A stretch of 64,000 bases of DNA from Anaerolineaceae bacterium (GTDB taxonomy: Bacteria > Chloroflexota > Anaerolineae > Anaerolineales > Anaerolineaceae): positions 5,186 to 69,185 of the forward strand of contig JADLFQ010000018.1 in NCBI GenBank assembly GCA_020845515.1, given 5' to 3'. Of the stretch, positions 28,927 through 54,333 are shown one piece after another (within the stretch, counting starts at the first letter, position 1; every line of letters begins with the position of its first letter). The notes below the pieces were generated by a model. It saw only the letters and a program-made list of their open reading frames with translations. It ran no database searches and was not told the origin of the DNA. The position numbers and the translations under genes are program-made.

Positions 28927-29832
28927 TTAACCCCCTGCCCCGTACACCTGTTTGGCGACGCGGTAGGTCTGGACGTGCGCCTGCACGGTAAGTTCCACCG
29001 GTTCAGCGTATCCGCCTCCCATCACCAGCGCAAGCGGGATTTTCCGGCTGTGGCACGCCTCAAACACACGGCGGTCGCGCCGCTCCAGCCCCTCCATGCT
29101 CAGGCTCAAGCGCCCCAGGCGATCTTCGTTCAGCGGATCCACACCGGCCTGGTAAAAGACGAACTGCGGATCGAAAGCCAGCACAGCTTCCAACCCTTCT
29201 TCCAGCGCATCCATGTACTCCTCATCGCCGCAGCAATCGGGCAGGTCAATGTCCAGTGTGGAAGGGGAGCGGCGGTAAGGGTAATTCTTCGCGCCGTGCA
29301 GGCTGAGCAGGAAGACCTCCGGGCGTCCGTTTAGGATGGCGGCTGTGCCGTTGCCCTGATGCACGTCGAGATCAATGACGGCAAGGCGCTGCAGTTTGTC
29401 TGCTGCGAGCAAATCCAGCACGGCGACTGCCAGGTCGTTGAACACGCAGTAGCCCATGCCTTCACCGGCAAGGGCGTGGTGGGTGCCGCCCGCCAGGTTG
29501 CCGGAGAAGCCAGCTGCGAGCGCCTGATAAGCTGCCGTCAGTGTGCCGCCCACGCTTGCCAGCGAGCGACGGAAGAGTTCGGGGCTCCACGGCAAACCGG
29601 TCTGGCGCACGATGCGTGTATCCAGCGTTCCGGCGGCGACCGCGTCGTAATAGTCTGCGGTGTGTGCCCGCAGGATCTGCTGGCGTGAGGCCAGAGGAGA
29701 GGGGAAAAGCTCTGCGGGGGAGAGCACATCCTCTTCCAGCAAAGCCTGGCGCAGGCGGGCGTATTTTTTTATCGGAAAGCGGTGCCCCGGCGGCAGGGCG
29801 ACGGTAAAGTGATCGGAGTAAAAGACTTTCAT
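28927..29832 (-). CDS. histone deacetylase-family (HDAC/AcuC-like) amidohydrolase
   Basis: Start chosen at MKVFYSDHF (29832). GGTHHA, DLDVHQGNGT and GGGY motifs. Confidence 0.8.
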   Translation of the reverse strand: MKVFYSDHFTVALPPGHRFPIKKYARLRQALLEEDVLSPAELFPSPLASRQQILRAHTADYYDAVAAGTLDTRIVRQTGLPWSPELFRRSLASVGGTLTAAYQALAAGFSGNLAGGTHHALAGEGMGYCVFNDLAVAVLDLLAADKLQRLAVIDLDVHQGNGTAAILNGRPEVFLLSLHGAKNYPYRRSPSTLDIDLPDCCGDEEYMDALEEGLEAVLAFDPQFVFYQAGVDPLNEDRLGRLSLSMEGLERRDRRVFEACHSRKIPLALVMGGGYAEPVELTVQAHVQTYRVAKQVYGAGG

Positions 29833-29950
29833 GCCAATGATTCTACCTGATAAGCGCTTCTGCCGGGGGATAACCGGAAAGTTGGGTTGAAAAAAACGCG
29901 GTTCAAGGGCTAAAATAACGACGTACTTTAATTTCAAGGAGTTGATTTTT

Positions 29951-30670
29951 ATGAAAACCATTGGTCTGATCGGCGGCATGAGTTGGGAGTCTTCCCTAGA
30001 ATATTACCGGATTATTAATGAAGCCATCAAAGCAAGGCTCGGCGGGTTTCATTCCGCCAAGAGCATCTTATATTCGGTAGATTTTGCCGAGATTGAGAGC
30101 CTCCAGCGATCTGGAAGGTGGGAAGAGGCAGCCGGGATGCTGGCGGGCGCAGCGAAAAGCCTGGAGAATGGCGGCGCTGATTGTGTTGTCTTGTGCACGA
30201 ATACCATGCACAAGGTGGCGGAGGAGATCGAGACCAGCGTCAACATTCCGTTTCTTCATATTGTGGACACAACGGCGCAACAGATCAAGCGTGCCGGTAT
30301 TCGGAAAGCAGGGCTGTTAGGGACGCGTTTTACGATGGAGGAAGAATTTTATGTCAACAGGCTTGTTCAAAAGCATGGTCTGGATATTCTCATCCCGGAT
30401 GCTCAAGGGCGGGAGCTTGTGCACCGTGTGATTTTTGATGAGCTGGTGTTGGGGGAAATTCGCCTGCCTTCCAAGGAGAGGTATCTTGATGTTATTGCGC
30501 AGATGGTTGAGCAAGGCGCTGAAGGAATTATCCTGGGGTGCACTGAAATTGGGCTGTTGGTTCACGCGCAGGATTGCCTGGTCCCGCTTTTTGACACCGC
30601 GAGGATCCACGCCGAAGCAGCGGTTGAATTTTCACTGGGAACCGCCCGTCAGGGCAGCCCCGATATATAA
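29951..30670 (+). CDS. aspartate/glutamate racemase family protein
   Basis: MKTIGLIGGMSWESSLEYY...CTNTMH...LGCTEI (two catalytic Cys motifs). AAGGAG lies 10 nt upstream of the ATG. Confidence 0.8.
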   Translation: MKTIGLIGGMSWESSLEYYRIINEAIKARLGGFHSAKSILYSVDFAEIESLQRSGRWEEAAGMLAGAAKSLENGGADCVVLCTNTMHKVAEEIETSVNIPFLHIVDTTAQQIKRAGIRKAGLLGTRFTMEEEFYVNRLVQKHGLDILIPDAQGRELVHRVIFDELVLGEIRLPSKERYLDVIAQMVEQGAEGIILGCTEIGLLVHAQDCLVPLFDTARIHAEAAVEFSLGTARQGSPDI

Positions 30671-30684: not shown

Positions 30685-30721
30685 CCCTCCCCCGATTTTT
30701 GGAGGAGGGCCGGGAGGGGAG
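30685..30721. repeat. GC-rich hairpin element, fourth copy, inverted orientation
   Basis: The reverse complement CCCCTCCCGGCCCTCCTCCAAAAATCGGGGGAGGG matches the 4264-4299 copy. It sits between convergent stops and could act as a bidirectional terminator. Confidence 0.55.
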
Positions 30722-30739
30722 AAGCTCCCAGAAATTTTT

Positions 30740-33700
30740 TTACTCCGCTTCGATCTTCACCTGAACGGCGCGCACCACCGTGCGCCAGGCGTAAGAATTA
30801 TTCTTTTCATCGTAGCCCTGGCAGGTGATCAGCGTCAGCCACGGTTTCGCCTCATGGCGCAGCGGGCGCAGGTCGGACGGTGCAGTCCAGTACACTTCGC
30901 GCACCTCATAGATGTACTTTGAGCCAAACGCCTGGATGATGATCCGGTCACCCCAGTGCAGGTTCTTCAGGTTGATGAAGGGGCCGGGCATGCCATCGGC
31001 ACGGTAGACATGTGCGGTCAGGCCGCTGTTGCCCTCCCAGGTTGGGAAGGCGGTGCCTTCCAGGTATCCCACCTGCCCGTTCAGCCAGGTCAGATCCCAA
31101 GCTTCGGCGCCATACGGTACGCCGACGATCTGCGACCATACTCCCAGCGCCGGGATCGAGAGGCTCATTCCGCTCATCTGGTCATAGGCACGGTCTGGCG
31201 GCTGAGCCGCGAGCGGCGTGACACGCCCGGGCGCAAAGCCGGTTTTGGGCAGTTCTTCCGGCAGGCTGATGGTTGCCTGGGCGCTGACGTAGTAAATGTC
31301 GGCAGGGTGGGCGGGGTCGTAATGGCGCTCATGTGCGTGTATGTTGTGCGTGGAAAGCGGCGCAGAAACATCGCCGGGCAGACTGCTCCAAGCCACGCTG
31401 GCGGTGTTGACCACAGAAGATCCGTTGGGGAAGCTATCCACCCGCGCCTGGAAGGTTAACAGCGCCTCTGTGGGTGTGCCCGAGGTTGAGAGCGGGAACA
31501 CAGGCCATTCGACCACCAGCCGGGATAGATTGGAATCGTTCACTGTTCCGGCGGGGCCGCTGGCAATTTGCAGGGAACCGGGAATGTACGTCAGGCCCAT
31601 TGGGATTGGGTCAGTCAGGATGACATCGAAGGCATCCATTGTGCTGCCAGGAAGCTGGGCGACGCGCAGGCTGAAGGTGACGATGCTGCCGACCATGGCG
31701 ATGGGGGTGTTGACAACCTTGACCAGCCCGAGCGCCGGTTCGACGATTTGCACCGGTGCAGCGGACTTTTGCAGCGGCAGTGCGCCATCCCATGTCCAGA
31801 CTGCGGTGTTGGTCAGGCTGCCACCCGCCTGGTTGCCGAGCACGTCCAGTACAGCCACGCGGTAACGGATGAGCAAATGCTCTTCCGCCCCTGTATTGGT
31901 TAAACTGCCAAAGTTGAGCGTCATGCGGCGGCCAGGGCTGGTATCGGCGGCGTAAGCCGGGTTGGCGGGATCCGGCACGGAGGTGATTGCAGCCGCGCTG
32001 CACACCGCGGAAAGGTCTGTGAGGGGAAGACCCGCGCCGAGCGTATACGAGAGATTGCTCGGGGCGGTATCCGAAACAAGACTGTCGCAGCCGATGAACG
32101 CCAGCCCCGGATCGAGGGTGTCGGTCATTACGAGGTTGTCCATCGTCCCGGTGGGGACGGTGAACCGCACCTCGTAGGTGAAGACTTCGCCGATGGCCGC
32201 ATTGGGCGTGGTGGTGTTGGCGCCGGGCGTGTCTGCGGCGATGATTTTGGTCAGGTCGGTATTGGGCAGGGTGACCAGTGCGTCGGTATCTGTTGCGGTG
32301 TTGTCGGTGGGGTTACCGTCCGGGCCGTTGCTGCCATCGTCTGCGATGCTTGCGGTATTGGCGATGCTGGTTGCACCTGCTGTTACCGGACTATCCACGG
32401 TTACGGCAAAGAGGATGGCGGGTGCAGCGGTATATCCGGCCAGGCTTGAGATGGTATAGGAACACACCGTGCCGGCGGGATCACCGTTGGCACAGCCAGT
32501 CCAGCCGGGGGAGCTTCCTGCGGCATTGAAAGTGGTTTCGGCGGGGACGGTTTCGGTGATGGTGATGCCCGCCGCTTCCTGTGTGCCGTCGTTGCGCACC
32601 TGGATGGCATAGACCAGCGCAGAGCCGGGGGTTACCGCGCTGACGCCGTTGCTCTTGGTTATGACGAGATCGGGGGCGGCGTCCAGTGTGGTGGTGGTAT
32701 CGTCCTCGTTGTCTGCCGGGGTGGGTTCGTCGCCGTGCGTGCCGTCATCGTTGATTTTGACATGGTTATCGGTTTGGGTGATACCGGCAGGCAGCGGGTC
32801 AATCACGTTGACCGCAAAGACGGCGGTCAGGCCTGTTGCTGCGGCGGGGACGCTCGCGATGGTTAACTGGCAGGCGGTTCCGGCAGGTGAACCGTTCGCG
32901 CACGACCAGCCGGAGGTACTGGCGGCGGTGTTGAAGGTTGTGTGTGCCGGTACGGTCTCATGGATGATCACGCCCGTTGCAGCCAGTGAGCCGGAATTTC
33001 CGTAGGTGATTGTGTAAGAAATGGTGCTTCCGGCGGCTGCCGGGCTGCCGGCGAGGCCGTCGTCCTTGCTTATGCTCAAATCTACATTGGTAAAGGTCAG
33101 GTCTTGCGTGCTGCTGGCGGAGTAATCATTTACGCCGCCGCTGCCGGTGCGCTCGTTGGCATCCGCGCCGGGGAGCGAGGTCCAATTTACGGAAGCGGTG
33201 TTGGGCAGGGCGCCGCCGATCGCCGGGGCTGGGGTTGCCAGTTGGGTGTCAAAGGTGACGACAAGCTGGCAGCCAAGCGGCAGGCTGGCGGCGCGCACGT
33301 CAACGAGTTGGCCGGAACTGTTGGTGGTATCCACGCCTGTGGCACAACCTCCCGGTACGGAAGATGAGGCAATATTGACGGGAGCGAGGAAGACCGCATT
33401 GAGTGTATCGCTGATGATTACGTCGAAGGCGTTTGCATGGCTGTTGGCGTTATGGTTCACCGTCAGGTTGTATGTGATTGTCTCGCCCAGCACCGGGCTG
33501 GCTGTACTGGCGGTTTTTTGGATCGCCAGAAGGGGTTCAACGACGTTTGCCTGGGCGGTTGAGGCGGGAGTGGTGATGCTGCCAACTTCGAGATATGCGG
33601 AGTTGACCAGCGCCGTCCCGTCCTGGCTGCCAGCCTCATTTAAGACTGCCGCCTGGAAACGGATGATGAAGGAATTATCGGTGTCGTTGTTGTTGGCAGT

Positions 33701-36700
33701 GACAACAGTTGAGCCGATGGTGATATCGAGGTCATCGCCGCTGCCCACCGGCGGGGCGACGGGGGTCACGGTGACAGTCCCGACCGTACCGGCAAAGCCG
33801 GTGGTATCCACCTGTACGGAGCCGACCACGAACTGCAAGCCAGCCGGCAGGTCGTCGGGGATGTGCAAGGAGGGTGTTGTGCCTTCCGGCAGAGTTATTT
33901 GCAGGGCAAAGGTGATTGTCTCGCCGATGGCAACGGAGGGATCCACTGTGTGGGGCGCCGAGGTCAGCGCGATTGACTTGCTGAAGAGCGGATCGGAGAT
34001 GGTGAATGAGGTGCCGTCGGCGGCGGCGTAGTCGTTCAGGGCGCCGCCAGGGCCGTCGCCTCCGTTGCGCTCATTTGGATTGCCGCCCGGTGTAGATGTC
34101 CAGGTGACATCGCCGGTGTTGGCAATCAGTTGCGCCGGGGTTACGCTCTGGTTGAGGGTGACGCTGTAGGTGATGACCACACTGCTCCCGGTGGTATTGG
34201 GGATGGATCCGATCAGCACGTTTACGACAGAGGCGGTGGAGTTATCGGTTACCCCCAGGGCACCGCCGTTAAGGGTTGCGCTGACTGAGCCGGGGACGAG
34301 CGTCACCGCAGCGGGAAGAGTATCAAGGAAATGAACGTCAAAAGCGGCGGCTGTGCTGCCAGAAGCCGGAGCGAGTGTCACCCGGTAGGTGACCGTATCG
34401 CCCGCGTCGGGGGTGACGTCAATTGAGGCGATCTCTTTGTCAATTGTCAAGACCGGTTCGACAATGTAGAAATCGTCGCTATCCATGCTGCTGCGCGATG
34501 TTCCGCCCTGGCTTGTGTAGGTTAATTCCACTTCGTTCACCAAGTGGCTGCCGTTGGCGTTGGCGTTGACGTTGGCGACGATGGCGTCATATTCAATGGT
34601 GATCGTCGGGGTGGAGACGACCGTATCGCCGAAATCCCAGGTGAGCGTCACCGCGGCGCTGCCGTCATTTGGGCTGGAGGCGGTGAAGGTTGCTGCGCCG
34701 ATGCCGGACGAGACCGTCTGGCTGCCGGCGTCATAGATTAATCCGGCCGGGAGGGTATCCACTACTTTGGCGTCTTGCAGGGTGCCGAGCGGGCTGGTGA
34801 TCGTCAGGGTGATGTGTACTTTGCCGCCGATTACTTCCTGCGTCACACCGCCATCGTCTTTGCTGATGGTTGCGCCGGTGGAGGTGACGGTGGCGGTTGC
34901 CGTGTCTTGCGTGCCGTCCACGCCGGGGCGGGAGACACTGTCATTGTAGATGCGCCCGCCGCCGTCACGCGATGCCCAGTCGGCGTCAACTGTGTTGGTG
35001 TAGTCACCGTCGAGTGTTATGTTACTCTGGATGTTGACTGTGTAGATGCACTGGATGTATCCGCCGACCGGGATGTCCCAGCTTCCGGCGGGGCTGCCCT
35101 GCAGGGTCAATACCGCGCCTGCCTGACTGGCTTGAGAAGGCACGGCCACACTGGTTTGATTTACGCATGAAGTCAGGGCGTTAAACTGGAAGCCCGCCGG
35201 CAAGGTATCCTCGGCAATCACGTCGTGGGCGATTGCCGTGCCGGTGTTGGCGAAGCGCACAGTGTAGGTCAGGGTATCTCCTGCCTGCACGCCCGTGGCG
35301 GGCACAACCGATTTGGTGGTTGTGATGATGGACTCTGTGATGGTGGAAAAGGCGCTGCTGATCTGGCGCGGGGCAGCGGTGTCGTCGGCAAAATGGTGGT
35401 CCAGCCAGACTTCGTTGACCAGGTTGGTACCGTTTACATTGGAGGTGACATCTGCGACGCGCGCCGAATAGATTATTGTAGCGTTGGCGAGGGTCTTTTC
35501 GGCGTCACCGAAGTTCCAGGTTACGGTCACCGGCGCCGAGCCGTCGTTCGGAGCGCTGACGGACGGGGTGGCGGCTGGCAGGCCGTTGATGACCGCGTCG
35601 TTGTTGTAGACCAACCCTGCCGGAAGATGGTCAGTGACGGCTGCACTGCGCAGCGTACCCATAGGGCCGCTGATGGTCAGCGTGAAGGTGATGGTATTGC
35701 CCACAACCGTCTGGGTTACACCGCCGTCGTCCTTGGTGATGGCCGGCGCGGGGGAGGTGAAGACCGCCGAGGCGGTATCCTGCGCGCCGTCCACGCCGGG
35801 GCGGGAGACGCTGTCGTCATAATGGCGCCCGCCGCCGGTGTTCAACGAGTACCAGTCGGCGTCTATGGTGTTGGTGTGTGCGCCGTGGAGGTGCAGGCTG
35901 TTTTGCGCCACTGCGGGGTACGTACATTCGATGTAGGCGTTCGCTGCCGTTGCGGGCAAATCCCACGAACCGGCCGGGATGCCGTCAAAGGTTATGGTAT
36001 TTCCGGCGGCTGCCGCGGCAGCCGGGATGGGTGTAGAAACCGCACCATCGAAGAAGGTGCAGACGCCGCTGAAGGCGGCGGTGTTAAAGGCAACGCCTTG
36101 CGCCAGGGTGTCTTGTGCGGTCACATCGTAGGCTGTGGCGCTTCCGGTGTTGGTGAAGCGCACGGTGTAGGATAGGGCATCCCCTGCCTGCACACCTGTG
36201 ACGGGTGCAACCGACTTGGTGGTTGTGATGACAGGCTCGACAATCGCCGCGGTTACCGGGGCGGATGTGGCTGTCGTGCCGGTGGCGGTGACGGTGAAGT
36301 CGTTGTTTTTGAGCGCCGCGTTGGCGTTGACGATGTTGTCCGTCACCAGCGCGTCGAACTCGACGATCAGGTATTCGTCGTCCGTATCATTGGAAAGGTC
36401 GTTGTTAACAATGTCATCGAGGGTGATGGTCACCACCTGTCCTGCCACGGAAACCCGCGCTGCGGGAACATCAAAGGTGGGCGGTACGGCATCGTTATCT
36501 GCGCCTGCCAGGTCGGCGGCTTCGGTGATGTCCTGGTCAGCGACAAAGGAGAGCTTCGGGTTGCCGGCGTAGGAAAAGCCCGCCGGGAGGGTGTCTGTGA
36601 GGATGGTTGACTGGAAGGTGCCCTGCGGCAGTGTGACTGCCAGGCGATAACGCACGGTCTCGCCGATGGTCAGGCTGGCACCTGTGGTGCCGCTGTCGGA

Positions 36701-39700
36701 GCTGGCGACGATGGATTTGATTGCCGAGAAATCGGGTGCGGTCACTGAAGCGGCCGCGCTGGTTTTGTAATCATTCTGCGCGCCCGGGCTCACGCCGTCG
36801 CGCTCACCGGTATTGCTCCCGCTTGCGCCGGGGGTCACCGAGCTGGTGGGGTTGGCGGGTGTGCCGTTCGGGCCGGGCAGGCTGGTATAGGTCAGGTTGG
36901 CAGTGTTGTCAAGCACATCGGAGGCGGTGATGGTGTACAGGATCAGAGCCGGGTAAGTGATGATCACCTGGCAGTTTACCGGCACGCTGGCAATTGTGAT
37001 GTCAATATTGTTGCCTGCTGATGTGCTGGTATCCACACCTGTGGCGCAGTTCGCCGGGGTGCTGGTTACGTTCAGGGCGCCGAGGCTGGCCGCCATTTTT
37101 GCCGGGACGATATCGGTGATGTGGACATCGAAGGCAGTTGTGTTATAGGCGGCGTTGGCGTTGGAGAAGGTCAGCGTGTAGGTGATCGTATCGCCAGCCT
37201 GCCCAACTGCGGGCACAGCCGTCTTGGTGAGGTTGGTGATTGCAGGCTCAACAATACGGTGGTACGTGTTATTGGAGTATCCACCCACCTGTACAAGGCT
37301 GCCGGAAGCGTTGTTGGCATAAATACGGAAGCGGTTGAATTGGGTTTCGTTGGCGTCATTGCTGTTTGCGCCACCGTAGTTGTCCACCAGTGCGTTGAAC
37401 TCCACGATGACGTACTCGGCATCGGCATCGTTGTCATTGTTGACCAGGCTGCCGAGCTTGATGTAGGGGTCGCTGCTGCTGACAAACAGGTCTGTGCCGT
37501 CATTGCTTGAACTATTGGTCAGGCTCAGGTTATTGTCCGCTAAAACACTGCAATTTGCCGGAATGGCGGGCGTCAGGCCGTTCGCCGTGCTGCCAGTGAT
37601 CTGACAGTTTGGGTCGGTCACGCCGGGGATGGGAAGGGCGCCATAGGAAGAGGAGGTGATGCCCCCGTTTGAGACAAAGACCGCCTTGGCGGTGTTGTCA
37701 TCGAGAAAGACCAGGCCGTTTGGCAGGGAATCGAGGATTTGGAAGTTGCTGCTGGTGCCTTCGGGCAGGCTGACGACCAAACGGTAGCGGATGATCTCGC
37801 CAATTGCGACCGGTACGGCGCTGGCAGGGGTGGTGGGCTGGTAGGGGGCGACCGGGCCGGCGGTGTGGGCTTCGGAGGTTTGTACCAGATATTTGCTTGG
37901 CTGTGCCGACGCGATGGTCACATTTACCGTACTGGAGGCGTTGTAATCGTCCCAGGCTGTGCCACTGCCGCGCCGTTCGTCCGAAGCGGTGTTTTGGGTG
38001 GAACGGTCGTTTATATCCCCGTCGAGGCTCGTCCAGTCGACGCGGGCGGTGTTGGCCAGCACCTGCCCGGGGATAACGCAGTACGCCATTGTTCCACTGA
38101 CGCGGATGGTGATCAGCCGCCCCGCAGTGCGGGGCAGGTCGAAGCTGCCGCCGCTGGGGGTGCGCAGCGTCCAACCGGCGGCGTTGCCGCCAGCCAGTTC
38201 AAAATTTGCGGCAGTCACCAGCCCGGCTGTGTCGGCAACCGTCAGGGCGGCAACCGGGTCGCTGATGTTCAGGGCGGAAGCGCCGCCCGCACTGCAACGC
38301 GGCAGAGCGTCGCTGAAGGTGACGTCCAAGGCGTCTGTTTGACTGCCGGCGGCGTGCGCCAGCGTGATGGTGTATTCCACCGGGTCGCCTGCGTCGGCAG
38401 TGGCTGGGTTAACGGTCTTAACCGCCGCCAGGGTGGGTTCGATCACGGTGATCCCCGGCGCGGAAACGGGTCCTGCGGAAGCCGCGACTGTGCTGCCATC
38501 CGCGTCGAGCGTGTTCCAGTCAATGCGCACCGAGTTGCTCAGCACACTGCCGCTCTGGTTGCTGCTGACGTTTAACACAACCGCGGTGTATTCAAAGGTG
38601 AGGGTTTCGTCTATGCCGGTGCTGTTGGCGGTATTGGTGACCGTACCGAGCGCCCAGGTGAGCGTCTGACCGTTGTTTGTGATGGCTGGCGTGGTGCTGC
38701 CACTTACCGTGAGGTTTGCCGGGTCCGACAAAGTAACTGAATCCTGCCGGACAAAGGCCAGGCCGGCGTCGAGCGTATCCACAATGACCGTATCCGGGCT
38801 GCTGCCTTCGGGGATGGTCATTGTCAGACGGTAGCTGACCAGTTCGCCGATGACGGCTTGTGTGGCGCTATTCTGGGCATTGTTCAATTCAGTGCCGGTG
38901 ACGATCTTGGCGAGTGCGGGATTTGCAATCGTGCTGTTGGCGCTGTCTTCGATGGGGATATCAACGTAGTTGTCGCCGCCCTCGGAGCCGGAGTAGTGGG
39001 TGATCTGACCTTTGTTCTCCAGCAATTGCCCCGGCGCGACGTCGGGTTTGACCATCAGATCGTAGGTGATGAGGATAACGTTCTTGCCGTTGGTGGTGTC
39101 GTGTCCCTGGCAGGCGCCTTTGCCGTATTCCGGGTCGCCCGGCGGGAGCACCGGATCGTTGATGCGGATGCCCTGGTCGAAGAAATCCAGCGGGGTGTTG
39201 CTTGCGCCCATGTATTGCAGGCTGGAACCTGTGCCGTCATCCAATGCGACGCCGTCGCCGCGGTAGATCTGCAAGTTGAACCCGCCCAAGCCGATGGCTG
39301 GAACGGGGATCATGTACCCGGCGGGGAGAATATCGCGCACGGTGATATCGAACGCGCCGTTCAGGCCTGAACCTGTGTTTTCGATGACGATGGCAAACTT
39401 AACCAGGTCGCCGCCGTCAATGCCTCCGATGCCGCTGCCGAGCGGGTTGGCGGCCAGATAGACCGAGTTGAGCGGGCTGCCGGTGTTCCAGGGGGCGCCG
39501 ATGGAGCCGGGTGTGCTGAAGACGATGGGTGCGGGAATCGGCGGGTTGGGAACAACGCCGGCGTGATCGGTGGAGATGACGCTCTTGCTGCCGACCAAAA
39601 CGGGCTCGGTCAGGGTTACGTCCATGAAGGTGTTCTGCGAGGAAAGCGAGCCAGGGCTGTTGGCATCCTGTTGGAGGACGCTGTTGCGCATCTTCAGGCC

Positions 39701-41974
39701 GTCGCCGAATTTTTCTGCGGTCACCCGTACGGTGAAGAGCAGATCAATCATCTTGGGGTCGTTGACCGGGTCATCGTAGCTGCCGAACGAGAATTTGACC
39801 GAGTTGTCGGCGGTGGAGGGGGAGATTGTCACACTGGCGGGGTCGAGCCCACGTGTGTCGGCGGGGCCGCGCATCCATGTTCCGGCATCGGGGATGACCT
39901 CCGAGCCGGTGTATTTGGGCCAAGTGGTCAGGTTGGAATTGTCGGTGTTTGGGTCCTGGGCATGGAAGATTGGCAGGGGCAGAAAGTCGGTCAACGAGAA
40001 ATCGAAGAAATCGCCGGTCAGCAGGTCGTACTGCAGGCGGTAAGTGAGCGTATCGCCCGCGGCGATCTGGATGCTGGTGCACGGGTTGAAGGCGTTGCAC
40101 AACGCGCCGTTGCGCGCCACGATGGTCTTTTCCACGCTGCCGCGCCCGATGTTGACATCCGCAGAACTGCTGCGGCTGCGTATGGTTGCGGTGATTGTGC
40201 ACGGGCCGGGGCTGCAGGTTGCGGTGTCAACCAAATTTCCGCGGATTGAAGCGGTATCGTTGAGCGTATCGCCCATACGAACGGACTCGCCGGGATAGGT
40301 ATCGGCATAGGTGTCTTCAATGATTGCGTAGAAGACCACCCGCCCGGTGGCGGCGGCGTTGGCGTGTCCCAAGCCATCGTTTACGTAATCTCCCAGCACC
40401 TGATCGCTGACAGCCCGGCCGCGCAGCTCTTGTGCGAGATCGAAGGTGATTGTTGTGCGGCCGTCGTTGGCGGCGGGGTCGTCCTGGTCGCATTCTGCGC
40501 CGGGGCCGCCGGTGTAGTTGCAATTGACGGTTACGTTGGCCGGGTTGAAGGTGTAGTTTTCGGCTGTCCCGTCGCGCGTGATGTGCAGGGCGGGCTGGAG
40601 GCTGGCATTTGTGTAATAATGCTGTCCGTCCGGCAGCAAGTCTTCAACGGTAAGGTTGGCAAAGCCGAAATAATCGGAGATTTCAAACGTCAGGGTATAG
40701 GCGATGATATCGCCGGGCGTTGCACCGGCCTCGCCGGTGTTGACTGCGATGGCGCTGTCTTTGCCGAGGGTGATGCTGCGGTCGTTGGAGGTGGATGAGC
40801 TGGGGCCGATATCTGTGTTGGTCAATGTGACCGGTGGTGAGCCGTCTGAGGGATCCCAGGTAATTGAATCTACTGTTGCGGTGTTGGTGGAGGTGCTTTC
40901 GGCGGTGGAAACACCGCTGGCGTCAAATTCCGGGATGTAGTAGTCAAAGGAGACGGTAATATCGCTGGTGACGGGGCCATCGTAATGCAGTTGGATTGTC
41001 TGTCCGCTGTGCGGCAGGCCGTCCACCGGCGGCGCGGAAACCGTGGTTGCGGCCGGATTGCTTGTCAGCCCGCCCAGGTAGACGATGCTGTCGGGAAGGG
41101 TGTCGGTGATATCAATATCGCGGAAGGACTGCCCCCCGGCGACATTAACGGTAATGGTGTAGCGCGCCGGGTTGTTGGGGCCGGTGGCGATGTTGGTATT
41201 GGAACTTGTTTTGGAGAGGAGGACGACGGTCGGGATGACGTCTGAGTGGGGCGCCCAGGTTATGGGGGCGCCGCTGTCGGAGACGATGGTCGTATCCACC
41301 GGGGTGGTGCAGCACCAGTCTATTGTCGGCGTGCGCCCATACTGAAAGCCGGCGCGGCCGCGCACGGTGAGTGCATCGCCGAGGTTGGCGTTGGGACTCA
41401 GGCGCGCCGGTACTGTGACCGTTACCGGGGGCTGGCCGGAGGTGAAGGAACCGTAGGGGATCTTGATCGAGACGATTTGGTCGCCGGCTTTGCCGCACAC
41501 CGGCAGGAAGAAGCCCGCTGTATCCAACCCCCAGGGGTGATTTACACAACCCTGGCCTGATCCGTCATCGGGAAAGGTCTGGGTGACGACGGTCAACACC
41601 TCGCCGGTATCCGTCGTGGCGGTGTAGTTTGCACCGGATGCCGGGCTGATGCCGTCGTAATTGGGTTCATCCGGGAAAACGCCATCGGGCCCGGTGTGAG
41701 GGATATATAGATCAATGAAGGGACCGTAACCGGTGTCTCCGTTGTTCTTAAATGTTGCTGTGATGTTAAAGGTGTCGCCCAGCATGACCGAGCCGGTATT
41801 GATTGTAACCGCAGGCAGCGGTACGAAGAGCGGGCGTTCCTGGCTGGAAGGCAGCGGCGCGGCAGACACGCTTTGCGCGGGTACAGTGGATATTAATATG
41901 GAGAGGGCCACAAGACCGGAGAGCAGGCAGGAGAAAATAGCTGGTCTTGTCTGTGGTGTGGTTGTATTGTGCAT
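30740..41974 (-). CDS. giant secreted surface protein with many DUF11-type (conserved repeat domain) Ig-like modules, a C-terminal LPKTG motif and a fused sortase domain
   Basis: Single uninterrupted ORF of about 11.2 kb. The signal peptide follows the MHNTTTPQTRPAIFSCLLSGLVALSILISTVPAQSVSA start (41974; the track start 42019 lacks an RBS). Repeated units of the type LTYTVRFANTGTAIAHDVIAEDTLPAGF occur more than 10 times. Confidence 0.85.
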   Translation of the reverse strand: MHNTTTPQTRPAIFSCLLSGLVALSILISTVPAQSVSAAPLPSSQERPLFVPLPAVTINTGSVMLGDTFNITATFKNNGDTGYGPFIDLYIPHTGPDGVFPDEPNYDGISPASGANYTATTDTGEVLTVVTQTFPDDGSGQGCVNHPWGLDTAGFFLPVCGKAGDQIVSIKIPYGSFTSGQPPVTVTVPARLSPNANLGDALTVRGRAGFQYGRTPTIDWCCTTPVDTTIVSDSGAPITWAPHSDVIPTVVLLSKTSSNTNIATGPNNPARYTITVNVAGGQSFRDIDITDTLPDSIVYLGGLTSNPAATTVSAPPVDGLPHSGQTIQLHYDGPVTSDITVSFDYYIPEFDASGVSTAESTSTNTATVDSITWDPSDGSPPVTLTNTDIGPSSSTSNDRSITLGKDSAIAVNTGEAGATPGDIIAYTLTFEISDYFGFANLTVEDLLPDGQHYYTNASLQPALHITRDGTAENYTFNPANVTVNCNYTGGPGAECDQDDPAANDGRTTITFDLAQELRGRAVSDQVLGDYVNDGLGHANAAATGRVVFYAIIEDTYADTYPGESVRMGDTLNDTASIRGNLVDTATCSPGPCTITATIRSRSSSADVNIGRGSVEKTIVARNGALCNAFNPCTSIQIAAGDTLTYRLQYDLLTGDFFDFSLTDFLPLPIFHAQDPNTDNSNLTTWPKYTGSEVIPDAGTWMRGPADTRGLDPASVTISPSTADNSVKFSFGSYDDPVNDPKMIDLLFTVRVTAEKFGDGLKMRNSVLQQDANSPGSLSSQNTFMDVTLTEPVLVGSKSVISTDHAGVVPNPPIPAPIVFSTPGSIGAPWNTGSPLNSVYLAANPLGSGIGGIDGGDLVKFAIVIENTGSGLNGAFDITVRDILPAGYMIPVPAIGLGGFNLQIYRGDGVALDDGTGSSLQYMGASNTPLDFFDQGIRINDPVLPPGDPEYGKGACQGHDTTNGKNVILITYDLMVKPDVAPGQLLENKGQITHYSGSEGGDNYVDIPIEDSANSTIANPALAKIVTGTELNNAQNSATQAVIGELVSYRLTMTIPEGSSPDTVIVDTLDAGLAFVRQDSVTLSDPANLTVSGSTTPAITNNGQTLTWALGTVTNTANSTGIDETLTFEYTAVVLNVSSNQSGSVLSNSVRIDWNTLDADGSTVAASAGPVSAPGITVIEPTLAAVKTVNPATADAGDPVEYTITLAHAAGSQTDALDVTFSDALPRCSAGGASALNISDPVAALTVADTAGLVTAANFELAGGNAAGWTLRTPSGGSFDLPRTAGRLITIRVSGTMAYCVIPGQVLANTARVDWTSLDGDINDRSTQNTASDERRGSGTAWDDYNASSTVNVTIASAQPSKYLVQTSEAHTAGPVAPYQPTTPASAVPVAIGEIIRYRLVVSLPEGTSSNFQILDSLPNGLVFLDDNTAKAVFVSNGGITSSSYGALPIPGVTDPNCQITGSTANGLTPAIPANCSVLADNNLSLTNSSSNDGTDLFVSSSDPYIKLGSLVNNDNDADAEYVIVEFNALVDNYGGANSNDANETQFNRFRIYANNASGSLVQVGGYSNNTYHRIVEPAITNLTKTAVPAVGQAGDTITYTLTFSNANAAYNTTAFDVHITDIVPAKMAASLGALNVTSTPANCATGVDTSTSAGNNIDITIASVPVNCQVIITYPALILYTITASDVLDNTANLTYTSLPGPNGTPANPTSSVTPGASGSNTGERDGVSPGAQNDYKTSAAASVTAPDFSAIKSIVASSDSGTTGASLTIGETVRYRLAVTLPQGTFQSTILTDTLPAGFSYAGNPKLSFVADQDITEAADLAGADNDAVPPTFDVPAARVSVAGQVVTITLDDIVNNDLSNDTDDEYLIVEFDALVTDNIVNANAALKNNDFTVTATGTTATSAPVTAAIVEPVITTTKSVAPVTGVQAGDALSYTVRFTNTGSATAYDVTAQDTLAQGVAFNTAAFSGVCTFFDGAVSTPIPAAAAAAGNTITFDGIPAGSWDLPATAANAYIECTYPAVAQNSLHLHGAHTNTIDADWYSLNTGGGRHYDDSVSRPGVDGAQDTASAVFTSPAPAITKDDGGVTQTVVGNTITFTLTISGPMGTLRSAAVTDHLPAGLVYNNDAVINGLPAATPSVSAPNDGSAPVTVTWNFGDAEKTLANATIIYSARVADVTSNVNGTNLVNEVWLDHHFADDTAAPRQISSAFSTITESIITTTKSVVPATGVQAGDTLTYTVRFANTGTAIAHDVIAEDTLPAGFQFNALTSCVNQTSVAVPSQASQAGAVLTLQGSPAGSWDIPVGGYIQCIYTVNIQSNITLDGDYTNTVDADWASRDGGGRIYNDSVSRPGVDGTQDTATATVTSTGATISKDDGGVTQEVIGGKVHITLTITSPLGTLQDAKVVDTLPAGLIYDAGSQTVSSGIGAATFTASSPNDGSAAVTLTWDFGDTVVSTPTITIEYDAIVANVNANANGSHLVNEVELTYTSQGGTSRSSMDSDDFYIVEPVLTIDKEIASIDVTPDAGDTVTYRVTLAPASGSTAAAFDVHFLDTLPAAVTLVPGSVSATLNGGALGVTDNSTASVVNVLIGSIPNTTGSSVVITYSVTLNQSVTPAQLIANTGDVTWTSTPGGNPNERNGGDGPGGALNDYAAADGTSFTISDPLFSKSIALTSAPHTVDPSVAIGETITFALQITLPEGTTPSLHIPDDLPAGLQFVVGSVQVDTTGFAGTVGTVTVTPVAPPVGSGDDLDITIGSTVVTANNNDTDNSFIIRFQAAVLNEAGSQDGTALVNSAYLEVGSITTPASTAQANVVEPLLAIQKTASTASPVLGETITYNLTVNHNANSHANAFDVIISDTLNAVFLAPVNIASSSVPGGCATGVDTTNSSGQLVDVRAASLPLGCQLVVTFDTQLATPAPAIGGALPNTASVNWTSLPGADANERTGSGGVNDYSASSTQDLTFTNVDLSISKDDGLAGSPAAAGSTISYTITYGNSGSLAATGVIIHETVPAHTTFNTAASTSGWSCANGSPAGTACQLTIASVPAAATGLTAVFAVNVIDPLPAGITQTDNHVKINDDGTHGDEPTPADNEDDTTTTLDAAPDLVITKSNGVSAVTPGSALVYAIQVRNDGTQEAAGITITETVPAETTFNAAGSSPGWTGCANGDPAGTVCSYTISSLAGYTAAPAILFAVTVDSPVTAGATSIANTASIADDGSNGPDGNPTDNTATDTDALVTLPNTDLTKIIAADTPGANTTTPNAAIGEVFTYEVRFTVPTGTMDNLVMTDTLDPGLAFIGCDSLVSDTAPSNLSYTLGAGLPLTDLSAVCSAAAITSVPDPANPAYAADTSPGRRMTLNFGSLTNTGAEEHLLIRYRVAVLDVLGNQAGGSLTNTAVWTWDGALPLQKSAAPVQIVEPALGLVKVVNTPIAMVGSIVTFSLRVAQLPGSTMDAFDVILTDPIPMGLTYIPGSLQIASGPAGTVNDSNLSRLVVEWPVFPLSTSGTPTEALLTFQARVDSFPNGSSVVNTASVAWSSLPGDVSAPLSTHNIHAHERHYDPAHPADIYYVSAQATISLPEELPKTGFAPGRVTPLAAQPPDRAYDQMSGMSLSIPALGVWSQIVGVPYGAEAWDLTWLNGQVGYLEGTAFPTWEGNSGLTAHVYRADGMPGPFINLKNLHWGDRIIIQAFGSKYIYEVREVYWTAPSDLRPLRHEAKPWLTLITCQGYDEKNNSYAWRTVVRAVQVKIEAE
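30743..31252 (-). other. LPKTG sorting motif (31238-31252) followed in the same polypeptide by a sortase catalytic domain
   Basis: ...EELPKTGFAPGRV...LSIPALGV...NSGLTAHVY (His)...WLTLITCQGYDEKNNSYAWRTVVRAV (TLxTC Cys and Arg). This resembles S. aureus SrtA QLTLITCDDYNEKTGVWEKRKIFVA (quoted from memory). Confidence 0.75.
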
Positions 41975-42210
41975 GGCATGACCCCTAAAGAATTGAATTG
42001 ATAAAATCGCCAACAGCATTAAGCTTTAGATGTAAAAATCCCCGCATCATCGGTTCAACTTCCTATTATACTGATAAAAACAAATAATAAACACCAATTT
42101 GATTTGTAATTGTATTGTAAGGTGGAGCGCATGGTTTTTGCACCCTGCTAAAAATTGACGGGGCGGCTCTGAAATTCGGCATCTTACATATAATTACAAA
42201 GGAGAACATA

Positions 42211-47676: not shown

Positions 47677-48744
47677 TTACGGGACTTGTTGGGTTTTGCT
47701 GAACATTCTTTTCTGAAAATAAAATGCGACATTGACCAAAGCAATCATTACAGGCACTTCAATCAGAGGGCCAATGACCGCCGCAAATGCCGCGCCCGAA
47801 TTAATCCCGAATACAGCAACTGCAACGGCGATAGCCAATTCAAAATTATTGCTTGCGGCGGTAAATGAAAGTGTTGTGGTTTTCGAGTAATCCGCACCGA
47901 CCGCCCGTCCCAAGAAGAATGAAACCAGAAACATGACTACAAAATAAAGCAACAAGGGAATGGCGATACGAACAACATCAAGGGGAAGTTCGACAATGAC
48001 ATCCCCTTTGAGAGAAAACATAACAACGATGGTAAAAAGTAAAGCAATGAGAGTAATCGGGCTGATTTTTGGCACAAAAGTTTTGTGATACCAGTTTTTT
48101 CCTTTTATACGGACAAGAAGCAGCCGGGTTAAAAACCCTGCAATGAACGGAATTCCCAAATAAATAAAGACGCTCTTTGCAATTTCGCGAATGGTTATAT
48201 TAACGATATTACCGGTCAATCCAAACCATGTTGGCAAAACGGTGATGAATAGATAGGCGTATACGCTGTAAAACAGGACTTGAAAAATGCTATTGAAGGC
48301 GACCAGGCCTGCCGCATATTCATTGTCGCCTTTGGCAAGCTCGTTCCATACGATAACCATGGCTATACAACGCGCAAGACCGATAAGAATTAGCCCTGTC
48401 ATATATTCGGGATAGTCACGCAAAAAGAGAATGGCAAGAATGAACATCAAAACGGGGCCAATCACCCAATTTTGCACGAGCGAAAGACTTAGAATTTTCC
48501 AGTTTCGAAAGACATCACCCAATTCTTCATAGTGTACTTTTGCTAGCGGGGGATACATCATCAGAATTAAACCTATGGCGATGGGAATGTTTGTTGTCCC
48601 CACTGAAACAAGATAATTGAATCTTGCGACTTGGTAGGTAAAGAAATAACCAATGAAAACGCCAGCCGCCATGGCAAGAAAAATCCATAAGGTCAGATAC
48701 CGGTCAAGAAAAGATAAACCTTTGCGGGATGCTTGTTTTGCCAT
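47677..48744 (-). CDS. acr3: ACR3-family arsenite efflux transporter
   Basis: [29 protein letters not shown]..., about 10 TM segments, typical of the Acr3/ArsB (BART) family. The start at 48744 follows AAGGAA. Confidence 0.8.
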
Positions 48745-48962
48745 TCTGTTGTTCCTTTTGATAAATTGTAACTGCCAGGCCACTGACATAAAGGGCAGGC
48801 GGAACAAAAGGTGAACCCAGCCAGGCAAGACACAATGCTTCGAGCGCGCTTGCACCGTTCTTCCTTGCCGGCGATATAAACCCGAAGCGTGGAAAGCGCC
48901 TGAAAATGCCGTGTGCTGGCGCCTGTTTGCTTCGCGAAATTCCGCGCGGATGGATTCTCAAA

Positions 48963-49027
48963 AGTGCCTTCGCCGCGTTCACAACACCCCAGACGGCTCC
49001 CAAGCTCCGCCGCGCGGCGAAGGCACT
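48963..49027. repeat. 15-bp perfect inverted repeat with a 35-nt spacer
   Basis: AGTGCCTTCGCCGCG (48963-48977) pairs with CGCGGCGAAGGCACT (49013-49027). On the minus strand it is followed by TTTTGAG. Confidence 0.85.
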
Positions 49028-49099
49028 GATCTTCCTGCCGAGTTTGGCCAAACCTGCGCGGCCAATTGCCGCGATCAGGCTTTCAGTCGGGGAGTGAAA

Positions 49100-49981
49100 T
49101 TAATCGCGCAATGCCCTGATTTGCGAAAGGTGCGTACTTTCATGTGCGGCGAAGTAACTGACCTGCTGGCGGAGGGTTATCGTGCCGAATTCCTCATGTT
49201 TGCCTGTGCGCCACCAATCGGAGAGGGGGAGTGATTCCAGTTTGCGGAGGGTTTCCGCGCGCGAGGTGCGATAGGCCTCGAAGATGTCGTGCACTGAGGG
49301 CGGACGTTCTGTTTCGTTTTTCGCCCATGCAAAGACGGCTTTCGATTCGAGGACAGGATGCAGTTCTTTGAGGAACAAGTTGACGCGAAAATCGAGCACG
49401 CCTTGTGCGTCACGCAGATGACCCAGGGTGTTGCGTATTGCCCAACCGCCATCAGGTGGAATTCGATTCAGCGTTTCGTCGGACAACCCTTCGATGAGTT
49501 TTTCCACTACAAACGGAGTCTGGCGCAGACATTCCAACGCGGCGGGTGGTTCAAGCGCGTCGAACCAATAGTTGGGCATAAAAATTTGGAAGGTCTCCGC
49601 CCACGCGCCGCAGGCAGGACATGGCCCGGTGGGCGGGGTGAGAGTCAAATGTCCGCATATGCGGCAAACATAGGGGTGAGGCGCTGTGGTGATGAGAGGC
49701 AGTCCCCCCTGTGCGAAAGTATCCACACTCTGTTTCATGGCGGATAGCAATTCTGCGCTCACATCCAGGTGAGACAATGTCTCAATCGTTTGCCGGATAT
49801 CGGCGGTTAATTTGTCTTTGTCGGCAGGGATTTCGATGGGATAAGCAGATTGGCGGCATAACGAATCCGCTGCGGCGCGCGTTAGCTTGGCAAGATTATA
49901 TTGCCCTTCTCCTTCCAATCTTGTAGCCAGAGCGAAAAGATGTACAAGCGTGTCTTTCCAATTAGAATTATTTGCAGCCAT
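49100..49981 (-). CDS. fusion of an N-terminal helical domain and rubredoxin-like zinc ribbon with a C-terminal DinB-family domain
   Basis: CRICGH...CPACG zinc ribbon, and C-terminal ...IRNTLGHLRD...YFAAHESTHLSQI, a DinB-like His triad pattern. Confidence 0.6.
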   Translation of the reverse strand: MAANNSNWKDTLVHLFALATRLEGEGQYNLAKLTRAAADSLCRQSAYPIEIPADKDKLTADIRQTIETLSHLDVSAELLSAMKQSVDTFAQGGLPLITTAPHPYVCRICGHLTLTPPTGPCPACGAWAETFQIFMPNYWFDALEPPAALECLRQTPFVVEKLIEGLSDETLNRIPPDGGWAIRNTLGHLRDAQGVLDFRVNLFLKELHPVLESKAVFAWAKNETERPPSVHDIFEAYRTSRAETLRKLESLPLSDWWRTGKHEEFGTITLRQQVSYFAAHESTHLSQIRALRD

Positions 49982-50009
49982 ATCATTTTCTCCTGAAGAC
50001 TCTTGTAAT

Positions 50010-50077
50010 ATCCAATTGCAGGGGGCGGTTACGGGCTGGTATCAACCGGGCTGCCCGCAGGATGGCACCGGCTGGAT
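50010..50077 (-). repeat. attC-like site (weaker)
   Basis: The minus strand reads ATCCAGC-CGGTG-CCATCCTGCGGGCAGCCCGG...CCCGTAACC...TGCA-ATTGGAT. The terminal boxes are complementary (ATCCA/TGGAT) and there is an internal bulged stem CCGGTGCC/GGCAGCCCGG. It is 68 nt, like 56414-56481. Confidence 0.4.
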
Positions 50078-50084
50078 TGCATTG

Positions 50085-50657
50085 TCAGGCGGCTTTATTA
50101 TAATTTCCTTTGTGGATTTCATAGCGCAACTCGACCATGCCTGTTCCCATTTGATGAACAGATGTTAAGCGCAGGGAAGGGCTCAGCACTCTGCGAGGAA
50201 ACAGCGGTTTGCCTTTGCCAAGGGTGGCTGAACCAACCTGGACGATCAGTTCGTCCAATAATCCGGCATCGTAAAACTGGCCCGCGAGATCACCTCCGCC
50301 AACAACCCAGATGTTTCTGTCTCCGGCAGCAGCCCGCATTTCAGCATGGACATGACGCACATCTCCATTGGCGAATCGGATGTTTGCGCCTTCGATGATT
50401 GGAAGTTTGCGACTGGAGAATATCCAGGCTGGTTGAGTGTATGGCCAGGGTGAGCCAGTCTCGGCCACAACTTTTTCTGCGTTTCGCATCAACCATTCGT
50501 AGGTCGCTGATCCCATAGCCAGGGCGCCAACTTCTGATATGAATGCCGGATAGCTGGAATCACCCAGATCGCCAAGGGAGAAAAGCCATTCCAGCGAGTC
50601 GTCTTCAGTCGCGATAAATCCATCAAGGCTTGCAGCTGTGTAGTACTGAGTTTTCAT
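50085..50657 (-). CDS. dihydrofolate reductase-family protein (RibD C-terminal domain)
   Basis: MKTQYYTAASLDGFIA...VVGGGDLAGQF...DELIVQV pattern. Confidence 0.75.
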   Translation of the reverse strand: MKTQYYTAASLDGFIATEDDSLEWLFSLGDLGDSSYPAFISEVGALAMGSATYEWLMRNAEKVVAETGSPWPYTQPAWIFSSRKLPIIEGANIRFANGDVRHVHAEMRAAAGDRNIWVVGGGDLAGQFYDAGLLDELIVQVGSATLGKGKPLFPRRVLSPSLRLTSVHQMGTGMVELRYEIHKGNYNKAA

Positions 50658-50684
50658 AAATTGACCCTGACGCTCCATCGTGCC

Positions 50685-50781
50685 GCCCAACGGCTGATGT
50701 TAGCAACGGCGTAGGCGGGGGTGAAAAAATGTTTGGGAATGCTGCACGCGCCCTGCCTGTCAGATGCGTGTTTTGTCAGCC
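50685..50781 (-). repeat. attC-type recombination site
   Basis: The minus strand reads GGCTGAC-AAAAC-ACGCATC-TGACAGG...-TGCTAAC-ATCAGCC-GTTGGGC. It overlaps the last codons of ORF 50760..51086. Confidence 0.6.
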
Positions 50782-51086
50782 TGTTTTTGTTTGGGCATAA
50801 TCTTTTTTGATTTCGTGACGTCTGTTGGATAAGGTTCTTTTTGTTCAAACAAACGTAACTGCACAGGCAACCCGGAGTATTCAATTATACTATCTGGTAT
50901 TGGCAGCCTTTCAAGAGCACGTGGTTCTACTTTTACAGCACCATCACCATAAGATTTTCCAATTAAGGAAAGATTTGAAATTGTATCCGGGTGATTAAGG
51001 ATTTTCCAAAGACGTTCCATAAATTCTTTATCTTCACTCTTAGGGTAGACGCATAAGAAACCTGTAAGAGGTCTTATCTGATTCAC
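50760..51086 (-). CDS. small protein resembling the C-terminal end of N6-adenine DNA methyltransferase/type IIG enzymes
   Basis: The GTG start follows AAGGAGGAG. The motif SYGDGAVKVEPRALERLPIP resembles the ...GGG.LK.EP.ELE.LPIP tail of Eco57I/PglX-like methylases (from memory). Only 108 aa. Confidence 0.45.
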   Translation of the reverse strand: MNQIRPLTGFLCVYPKSEDKEFMERLWKILNHPDTISNLSLIGKSYGDGAVKVEPRALERLPIPDSIIEYSGLPVQLRLFEQKEPYPTDVTKSKKIMPKQKQADKTRI

Positions 51087-51174
51087 GCTCCTCCTTATCA
51101 GGGATTGGCAGTTCTGCTGACCCCTGTTTATATGTAAAATGGATACAGAAATAAATTACTGCGAGGGAATTGTG

Positions 51175-53012: not shown

Positions 53013-53145
53013 GGGGGGTTACTTCCCGGATTTCTTTAACGAAACTTTACAAACTCTTTAATGATGCTTCATCCTCCTGGTGTAAGATAGGCCTGCAAGT
53101 AAAAAAGACAGCTCTTGATTGGGCTCAATGAAAGGATGAAACATT

Positions 53146-53400: not shown

Positions 53401-53407
53401 GTGAGAA

Positions 53408-53617: not shown

Positions 53618-53632
53618 ATGGCTCAATTTTTG

Positions 53633-53670: not shown

Positions 53671-53709
53671 CGATCAAACATTAACTTTACATGCAAAGGA
53701 ACCAACTAA

Positions 53710-54279: not shown

Positions 54280-54333
54280 TGATCCAATTTTGGGAGAGCA
54301 AAGCCAATATACAGGTTTTGATCTCCCTTCCTA

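Follow-up and report, generated by a model that had tools for sequence, protein, structure and literature searches.

Sortases, in the systems characterised so far, are stand-alone proteins anchored in the membrane and used for many turnovers, and each substrate is kept in the membrane by a hydrophobic tail of its own. How is a surface protein sorted when its LPXTG motif is followed by no such tail and, in the same polypeptide, by a sortase domain? This question is raised by a giant gene on contig JADLFQ010000018.1 of an Anaerolineaceae bacterium of the Chloroflexota (NCBI GenBank assembly GCA_020845515.1), of which we analysed positions 5,186 to 69,185 of the forward strand, a stretch of 64,000 nucleotides referred to below as the window. 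An earlier note on this DNA had described the gene product as a giant adhesin that carries its own sortase. Substrate motif and enzyme do share one polypeptide there, and this part of the description stands, but the arrangement is not peculiar to one adhesin: judged by sequence, the last 170 residues look like a self-contained C-terminal sorting tail, common to more than 1,400 protein clusters with unrelated cargo.

The giant protein is encoded by a single open frame (Table 1), as had been proposed from a start at position 41974; this is the second ATG of the frame, probably the true start, and it opens a typical signal peptide whose cleavage site was inferred from its V-S-A pattern. The sole hydrophobic stretch of the protein (residues 25-47, Kyte-Doolittle 2.3) lies within that peptide. 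The first half of a classical LPXTG sorting signal is therefore present, consisting of signal peptide and LPXTG pentapeptide, and as in classical sorting the motif stands on a surface protein with an N-terminal signal peptide. The second half, a hydrophobic segment with a positively charged tail, is absent; the only LPxTG of the protein sits 165 residues before the C-terminus, against about 35 in a classical sorting signal, and the chain continues as a tether and a sortase domain. With a Kyte-Doolittle maximum of 1.18 over the last 250 residues, no transmembrane segment or hydrophobic anchor follows LPKTG, which upholds the earlier note both on the missing anchor and on the lack of a membrane segment between motif and enzyme. 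About 0.2 LPxTG would be expected from composition in a protein of this size, and a chance occurrence is ruled out by the positional conservation of the motif, which is kept in 84 of 85 tails from 80 loci and in 148 of 148 family representatives with no more than 50% pairwise identity.

Profile, fold and catalytic residues all place the tail in the sortase superfamily, with transpeptidase or cleavage activity predicted from its sequence. Pfam Sortase (PF04203) matches residues 3620-3753 with 69 bits in a 252-residue C-terminal fragment and 64.5 bits in the whole protein, against a cut-off of 26.6. AlphaFold2 and Foldseek yielded the eight-stranded beta-barrel of sortases, with structures of classes C, D, E and A retrieved at probability 1.0 (query TM-score, TMq, 0.59-0.68). 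The four landmark strings that had been read as a sortase lie where they were placed, and the Pfam domain, the beta-barrel and the His-Cys-Arg triad with its TLxTC signature are those of the classical enzymes of classes A-F. The enzyme itself differs from these in having no membrane anchor: over a span of 3,500 residues ahead of the domain there is no hydrophobic segment, and behind it family members have just 0-13 residues left (0-6 in the giant protein). It is also the only sortase domain in the window: a profile of the tail found no second one, and no separate sortase gene, in the six-frame translation.

The closest solved proteins by sequence are class C pilus sortases and Clostridium perfringens SrtD (profile E about 1e-13), and the class C sortases 6ixz, 7d6p, 8t28, 2xwg, 2w1k and 6bwe are among the best sequence or structure matches. 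However, no NCBIfam sortase class model (A-F, GN) reaches its curated cut-off with the giant protein (bits against cut-off: class E 38.3/160, C 36.9/160, F 32.7/166, D 28.1/165, SrtD 31.4/140, GN 17.3/158, TIGR01076 35/39.35), and these scores rule out membership in a recognised class A-F or GN. A family-specific GWDxxWL insertion, GAEAWDLTWLNGQVGYL (residues ~3636-3652, window 31040-31090, minus strand), contains the invariant residues W3641, W3645 and L3646 and faces a gap or divergent sequence in solved class C sortases. Like the class C enzymes, the tail has a segment N-terminal of strand beta1 that is modelled as ordered and would cover the active site. The DP[FWY] lid motif that class C enzymes carry there is absent, however, and is replaced by a true LPxTGF substrate motif ([LIVA]PxTGFAP in 148/148 representatives); in further contrast to class C, the tail has the GWDxxWL insertion and lacks both N-terminal helices and a membrane anchor. 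The spacing from lid to cysteine is about 135 residues in class C sortases, against 140-143 in the tail.

To delimit the family, one genome per species of the GTDB was scanned with a tail profile built from nine sequences, which gave at least 576 confirmed matches in Chloroflexota genomes. The best 80 of these loci are all from Chloroflexota, mostly metagenome-assembled genomes (MAGs) of Anaerolineales; among the others are a Dehalococcoidia chromosome, a MAG of Herpetosiphon and the cultured Ornatilinea apprima P3M-1 (locus L013); 84 of their 85 complete tails bear an in-frame [LIVM]PxTG, and the lone exception reads APAAG. Among 1.84 billion representatives of clusters formed at 50% identity, at least 1,447 carry the tail at E<=1e-30. 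In every one of the best 150 (150/150) the motif opens the matched region, which stops 0-13 residues short of the C-terminus, in proteins of 223 to 4,649 residues. We propose to define the family by [LIVA]PxTGFAP placed 140-145 residues before the TLxTC cysteine, at the extreme C-terminus of a protein with a signal peptide, a definition that the giant protein fits. An orthologue of 3,745 residues from an Anaerolineaceae MAG (P0244) is 72% identical over 3,719 residues and keeps the fusion and the same end. Several genomes hold more than one copy of the tail, some in tandem. Directly downstream of an orthologue of the giant gene lies a gene for a 927-residue paralogue with the same tail (locus L002, 10890-13670, plus strand), and two loci contain tandem pairs of large tail-bearing genes (L015, 2141-10534 and 10710-20120; L025, 84-3188 and 3498-10133); the tandem pairs suggest local duplication of tail-bearing surface proteins.

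Within the family, the sorting motif is as strongly conserved as the active site. In 283 non-redundant tails the motif P (100%), T (98%), G (100%) and the F that follows (99%) equal the catalytic His, Cys and Arg in conservation, and the 148 representatives share the consensus [L73 I11 A7 V4]-P100-x-T97-G100-F100-A91-P92-[GND]-x-x-T88-x-L86-P-x-Q92-P-x4-Y84 over motif and tether, with beta1 next (figures in per cent); the tether is counted from the F behind the motif. The spacing from the first motif residue to the catalytic cysteine is fixed as well, at 140-145 residues in 141/141 representatives (143 in the giant protein), and 18-25 residues lie between G3594 and beta1. AlphaFold2, run with a 70-sequence alignment, modelled the last 333 residues of the giant protein, its final CLIPPER domain and the tail, at a mean predicted local distance difference test (pLDDT) of 91.5 and the 175-residue tail alone at 95.6, with a predicted TM-score (pTM) of 0.91. 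The block with LPKTG has a pLDDT of 91 when the upstream domain is included and 83 without it. The tether reaches 91-96 with and without that domain, even though the DSSP assignment gives it almost no regular secondary structure, only one 3-residue helical turn in both models; because of this confidence, the tether is best taken, at the level of the model, as packed onto the sortase domain rather than as a floppy linker.

A further link between motif and enzyme comes from covariation. Over 283 aligned tails, with an effective number of sequences (Neff) of 76, we computed mutual information with average product correction (APC) for 14,365 pairs of positions; the couplings of motif residue 1 to profile positions 136 and 133 take ranks 13 and 18. 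Position 136 corresponds to Leu3720 of the giant protein, which DSSP places in a short helix (model residues 292-294) within the beta6/beta7 loop. Established structural work on sortases assigns to this loop the binding of Leu-Pro in the sorting signal and the control of specificity. A leucine in the motif goes with a leucine in the loop in 149 of the 177 motif-Leu sequences with Leu or Phe there, and I, A, V, M or T in the motif goes with Phe in the loop in 31 of 42 (Fisher p = 9e-13, uncorrected), a pairing that is complementary in residue size at the sequence level. As a correction for shared ancestry, 142 disjoint nearest-neighbour pairs of tails were compared: the loop switches in 11 of 30 pairs with a motif switch and in 14 of 112 without one (odds ratio 4.05, p = 0.005), and ten of the 11 coupled switches run in the complementary direction. 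The pattern supports the view that each motif is recognised by its own kind of sortase domain.

Table 1. Positions of the giant gene, of the parts and landmark residues of its product, and of one adjacent feature, in window coordinates.
Feature	Position	Strand	Details
Giant surface protein, open reading frame	30740..42019	minus	One uninterrupted frame, 3,759 codons plus stop
Predicted Sec signal peptide, residues 16-53	41861..41974	minus	MHNTTTPQTRPAIFSCLLSGLVALSILISTVPAQSVSA, cleavage before AP; V-S-A pattern, hydrophobic segment
Cargo, about 3,500 residues	31268..41860	minus	Tandem DUF11/CLIPPER, DUF7507/DUF7619 and isopeptide-forming (RrgB-D2-like) Ig-type domains, by hidden Markov model
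LPKTG sorting motif, residues 3590-3594	31238..31252	minus	Predicted scissile bond between T3593 and G3594
Tether, motif to sortase beta1, residues 3595-3619	31163..31237	minus	FAPGRVTPLAAQPPDRAYDQMSGMS; 25 residues, conserved, non-hydrophobic
Sortase catalytic domain, residues 3620-3759	30743..31162	minus	PF04203; reaches the C-terminus
Landmark LSIPALGV	31139-31162	minus
Landmark NSGLTAH	31010-31030	minus
Catalytic His3670 (LTAH)	31010..31012	minus	100% in 283 tails; invariant in two alignments
Leu3720 (profile position 136)	30860..30862	minus	13 residues before the Cys; co-varies with motif residue 1
Landmark WLTLITC	30821-30841	minus
Catalytic Cys3733 (TLITC)	30821..30823	minus	100% in 283 tails; aligns to the TLxTC Cys of solved sortases
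Landmark WRTVVRA	30767-30787	minus
Catalytic Arg3746	30782..30784	minus	99% in 283 tails; invariant in two alignments
Terminator-like hairpin	30712..30729		Consensus match only, no commoner than in shuffled sequence

The cargo ahead of the tail varies without a common theme. Complete members carry N-terminal signal peptides and, between these and the tail, seven FG-GAP repeats, a cadherin domain, a combination of GEVED, SpaA_3 and DUF11, a combination of DUF7507 and SdrD_B, or no known domain; fragmentary members add S8 subtilase and Big_9 cargo. One 258-residue protein found on five contigs (P0072) consists of a signal peptide, about 60 Gly-rich residues, LPSTGFSPN and the sortase domain, with almost no cargo. 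Across the 80 loci no conserved partner gene lies near the tail: the most frequent neighbour cluster, an ABC-F ATPase, occurs at only 12 of them, which rules out a dedicated partner gene beside it. The earlier note had also considered head-to-tail polymerisation; the spread of the tail over unrelated cargo weakens that idea and favours a general role as a sorting signal. On this reading, many secreted proteins of Chloroflexota would use the tail where classical sorting pairs an LPXTG signal, complete with membrane segment and basic end, with a sortase residing separately in the membrane.

We take the motif to be the substrate of its own domain, because it is conserved like the triad, its spacing is fixed, the tether is modelled with confidence and its first position co-varies with the loop; on this basis we infer how cleavage would proceed in cis, what would accept the cargo and what would become of the domain, as follows. 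The protein would be exported N-to-C by the Sec route through its signal peptide, and the tail, emerging and folding last beside membrane and wall, would use the tether to lay its own LPKTG into its own sortase groove, a docking supported by conservation, fixed spacing, covariation and the model. By analogy with characterised sortases, Cys3733 would then attack the T3593-G3594 bond, leaving the cargo hanging as a thioester and an enzyme fragment that begins GFAPG. An amine of the envelope, on a peptidoglycan stem peptide or on another envelope polymer or protein, would resolve the thioester, so that the cargo becomes covalently fixed and the spent sortase domain is released. Each copy of the enzyme would act once, which is what the joining of enzyme and substrate in one polypeptide implies when set against classical sorting. 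To this sequence of cis cleavage, thioester and resolution by an envelope amine we assign a probability of about 0.5. Its extension to the whole family, as a single-use 'autosortase' tag with which surface proteins of Anaerolineae and related Chloroflexota would be cleaved in cis, held as a thioester, handed over to an envelope amine and relieved of the domain, is proposed more tentatively, at slightly worse than even chances.

Engineered proteins offer the closest precedent for such a reaction. Autocyclases, built as cargo, LPXTG, linker and SrtA, react unimolecularly in cis when 21-33 residues separate the motif from beta1 (PMC9985607); engineered fusions of sortase also serve as self-cleavage tags (PMC2901362). 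The order of cargo, LPXTG, short linker and sortase is the same in the natural tail, where the gap is 18-25 residues, and because autocyclases react unimolecularly across a similar gap, the cis geometry is feasible by analogy. The engineered fusions differ in being man-made from Staphylococcus aureus SrtA with flexible artificial linkers, whereas in the natural tail the tether is conserved and ordered, the sortase is divergent, and cis cleavage is a prediction. A second parallel lies in Hedgehog/Hint proteins, in which a C-terminal domain acts once in cis: the thioester formed at the junction is attacked by a second nucleophile, which leaves the cargo covalently anchored. The proposed logic of the tail is the same (a single-use C-terminal cis domain, a thioester, a covalently anchored cargo), although as an analogy only. 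Fold and chemistry are unrelated, since the first residue of the Hedgehog/Hint domain undergoes an N-S acyl shift whereas in the tail a distal active-site cysteine would attack LPxTG, and we claim no homology.

Several points weigh against cis cleavage and anchoring. The covariation is modest (Neff 76; p = 0.005 in sister pairs) and would fit recognition between identical molecules in trans equally well, and the evidence for docking of LPKTG at Cys3733 consists of model confidence values and this covariation. The enzyme has no membrane anchor that would bring it to lipid II. After cleavage in cis the new N-terminal glycine of the enzyme fragment would stay close by, and the reaction could be reversed. 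The 927-residue paralogue has a degenerate motif, APAAGFAPG in place of LPxTGFAPG, with TLITC and the rest of the domain kept, and may be a non-cleavable or differently processed variant. Finally, separate membrane sortases and classical substrates may coexist elsewhere in the carrier genomes. On the other side, the 1.36 Mb made up of the window and the 80 loci yielded no open reading frame with the classical combination of LPXTG, transmembrane segment and basic tail, a result in favour of the proposed role of the tail that is only suggestive in so small a sample.

The same components could act between molecules, an alternative we consider unlikely yet worth weighing: the sortase of one molecule would cleave the LPxTG of its neighbour and join it to a lysine or N-terminal amine of another copy, giving covalent fibres or a cross-linked mesh or sheath comparable to sortase-built pili. 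It would suit the relationship of the tail to the pilus-polymerising class C sortases, its nearest solved relatives, and the seven RrgB-D2-like fimbrial isopeptide domains in the cargo of the giant protein, and the motif-loop covariation is as expected from trans as from cis recognition. Engineered autocyclases also yield dimers and oligomers (PMC10804404), and in Litorilinea, another member of the Chloroflexota, trimeric filaments described as polar grappling hooks are built from a giant DUF11 protein, GhlA (WP_141610714.1; bioRxiv 10.1101/2025.08.19.671072). Action in trans has no need, however, of a fixed tether length, a conserved tether sequence or a tether that is modelled with confidence. 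Moreover, a YPK-type pilin motif is missing from the giant protein, mature N-termini show no conservation, and the cargo families are unrelated, some of them tiny or enzymes, which makes a common acceptor lysine in the cargo unlikely. Canonical pilin polymerisation is ruled out by the lack of a YPK motif and of a conserved mature N-terminus.

Cleavage in cis might also serve self-removal only. The T-G bond would be cut, water would resolve the thioester, and the cargo would go free with a C-terminal LPKT, the tail having served as a throw-away aid to secretion or folding, or as a switch for release. Sortases do hydrolyse when a nucleophile is not at hand, and the enzyme here has no anchor of any kind. 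Hydrolysis has, in addition, been seen for autocyclases in vivo (PMC9985607). We nevertheless regard this as improbable: a strictly conserved enzyme of 170 residues on more than 1,400 cargo families would be a costly tail trimmer, and adhesin-like cargoes, which have no other anchor, would lose their attachment to the cell.

At least as doubtful is the proposal that the motif is never cleaved. LPxTGF would then be a pseudo-substrate lid that autoinhibits the groove, comparable to the class C DP[FWY], and the protein would display on the surface a sortase that acts on other proteins. The segment does occupy the position of the class C lid N-terminal of beta1, the tether is ordered in both models, and some Foldseek alignments to lid-bearing SrtC structures span 165-184 columns. 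Yet it is an exact substrate consensus rather than DP[FWY], its first position co-varies with the specificity loop as substrate recognition would have it, and no other LPXTG substrates were seen in the 1.36 Mb of sampled DNA. A general enzyme mounted on hundreds of unrelated cargoes, including a stub of 60 residues, would also make little sense.

The chance that a frameshift, mis-assembly or read-through joined a surface-protein gene to a separate sortase gene is negligible, for although many database relatives are short 'sortase' fragments and one long-read MAG has the giant gene broken into overlapping frames, neither stop nor frameshift separates motif and domain in orthologues or in over 80 assemblies made independently, by different projects and with different technologies, full-length fusion proteins reach 4,649 residues, motif and domain share one frame even in the fragmented MAG, and the tether has no start codon context, signal peptide or transmembrane segment of its own; a frameshift or assembly join is thus ruled out. 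In that MAG (contig_10721 of 1.7 Mb, loci L001/L004) the homologous giant gene at 629-10804 is split into at least eight overlapping frames, for which indel errors of long-read sequencing are the most likely cause. The short 'sortase' proteins that dominated the first homology search are likewise fragments from contigs of 1-2 kb or from frame-broken long-read assemblies, and as a consequence of such fragmentation and short contigs the family appears in databases as small stand-alone 'sortase' proteins.

The cargo of the giant protein scores 223 bits with PF01345 (DUF11), as the note had expected for the body of the protein, 329 bits with TIGR01451 and 278 bits with TIGR04226, the isopeptide-forming fimbrial domain. 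DUF11 has been renamed CLIPPER, and isopeptide bonds have been demonstrated in it (PMC12617251). Within the cargo a two-domain unit of about 300 residues is duplicated in tandem with 53% identity (residues ~1925-2530, window 34430-36247, minus strand), both copies beginning I(V/T)E(P/S)(V/I)ITTTKSV. GC skew is strong and steady over the giant gene (+0.14 to +0.20 on the plus strand, window 32000-42000), and numerous long antisense open reading frames cross it, for example 35225-36175 (316 codons), which look like compositional by-products of a high-GC gene rich in Thr, Ala, Gly and Val rather than real genes.

The giant gene has no companion: a racemase gene converges on it from one side, a K+ channel gene diverges from it on the other, and its window neighbours (deacetylase, racemase, K+ channel) are housekeeping genes. 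The terminator-like hairpin falls within the 69 bases that separate its stop codon (30740-30742) from the end of the racemase gene (30670); scans for tRNAs, tandem repeats, promoters and terminators around the giant gene were unremarkable, and no tRNA was found anywhere in the window. The deacetylase frame (28927-29979, minus strand) and the racemase frame (29942-30670, plus strand, TTG start) overlap by 38 bases at their listed starts (window 29942-29979), and the true racemase start is probably further downstream than 29942. Towards the far end of the window (48001-64000) G+C drops from about 0.60 to 0.45-0.51, over ordinary genes that include an SBF transporter, DinB, RibD_C, an OmpR/HisKA two-component pair, CueP and a DUF4143 ATPase.

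As a portable C-terminal tag on unrelated secreted proteins of one lineage, present in several copies per genome, the tail resembles the tags of the PEP-CTERM/exosortase, type IX secretion system C-terminal domain (T9SS CTD) and GlyGly-CTERM/rhombosortase systems; these, however, rely on a separate dedicated membrane enzyme, whereas the tail brings its enzyme along and has no conserved partner. No description of a natural LPXTG-sortase fusion was found in the full-text literature (subscription-only papers lay outside the search), and the natural motif-tether-sortase tail is apparently undescribed so far; the search yielded only engineered fusions and a remark by Cavalier-Smith in 2006 on a Chloroflexus sortase homologue (PMC1586193). 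In databases the tail-bearing proteins go by unspecific names ('sortase', 'LPXTG-site transpeptidase family protein', 'isopeptide-forming domain-containing fimbrial protein'), and the name 'sortase' hides both the cargo and the motif.

A natural family of at least 1,447 clusters with substrate motif and enzyme in one chain departs from the rule of a separate enzyme and a membrane-held substrate. In practical terms it is a source of hundreds of natural tails in which motif, tether and sortase are already optimised and which could be turned into self-cleaving tags or used for self-ligation or cyclisation. Were the tail to work by cis cleavage and hand-over to an envelope amine, it would be a natural counterpart of the engineered autocyclases and a convergent analogue of Hedgehog-type autoprocessing, and it would set single-turnover, self-contained sorting beside the known systems of tag plus dedicated enzyme. 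Chloroflexota are regarded as monoderm, with multilayered envelopes. For this abundant and little-understood phylum and its atypical monoderm envelope, the tail would represent a covalent anchoring pathway without a dedicated membrane enzyme and would explain how adhesins, proteases and giant fibrillar proteins are fixed on the cell.

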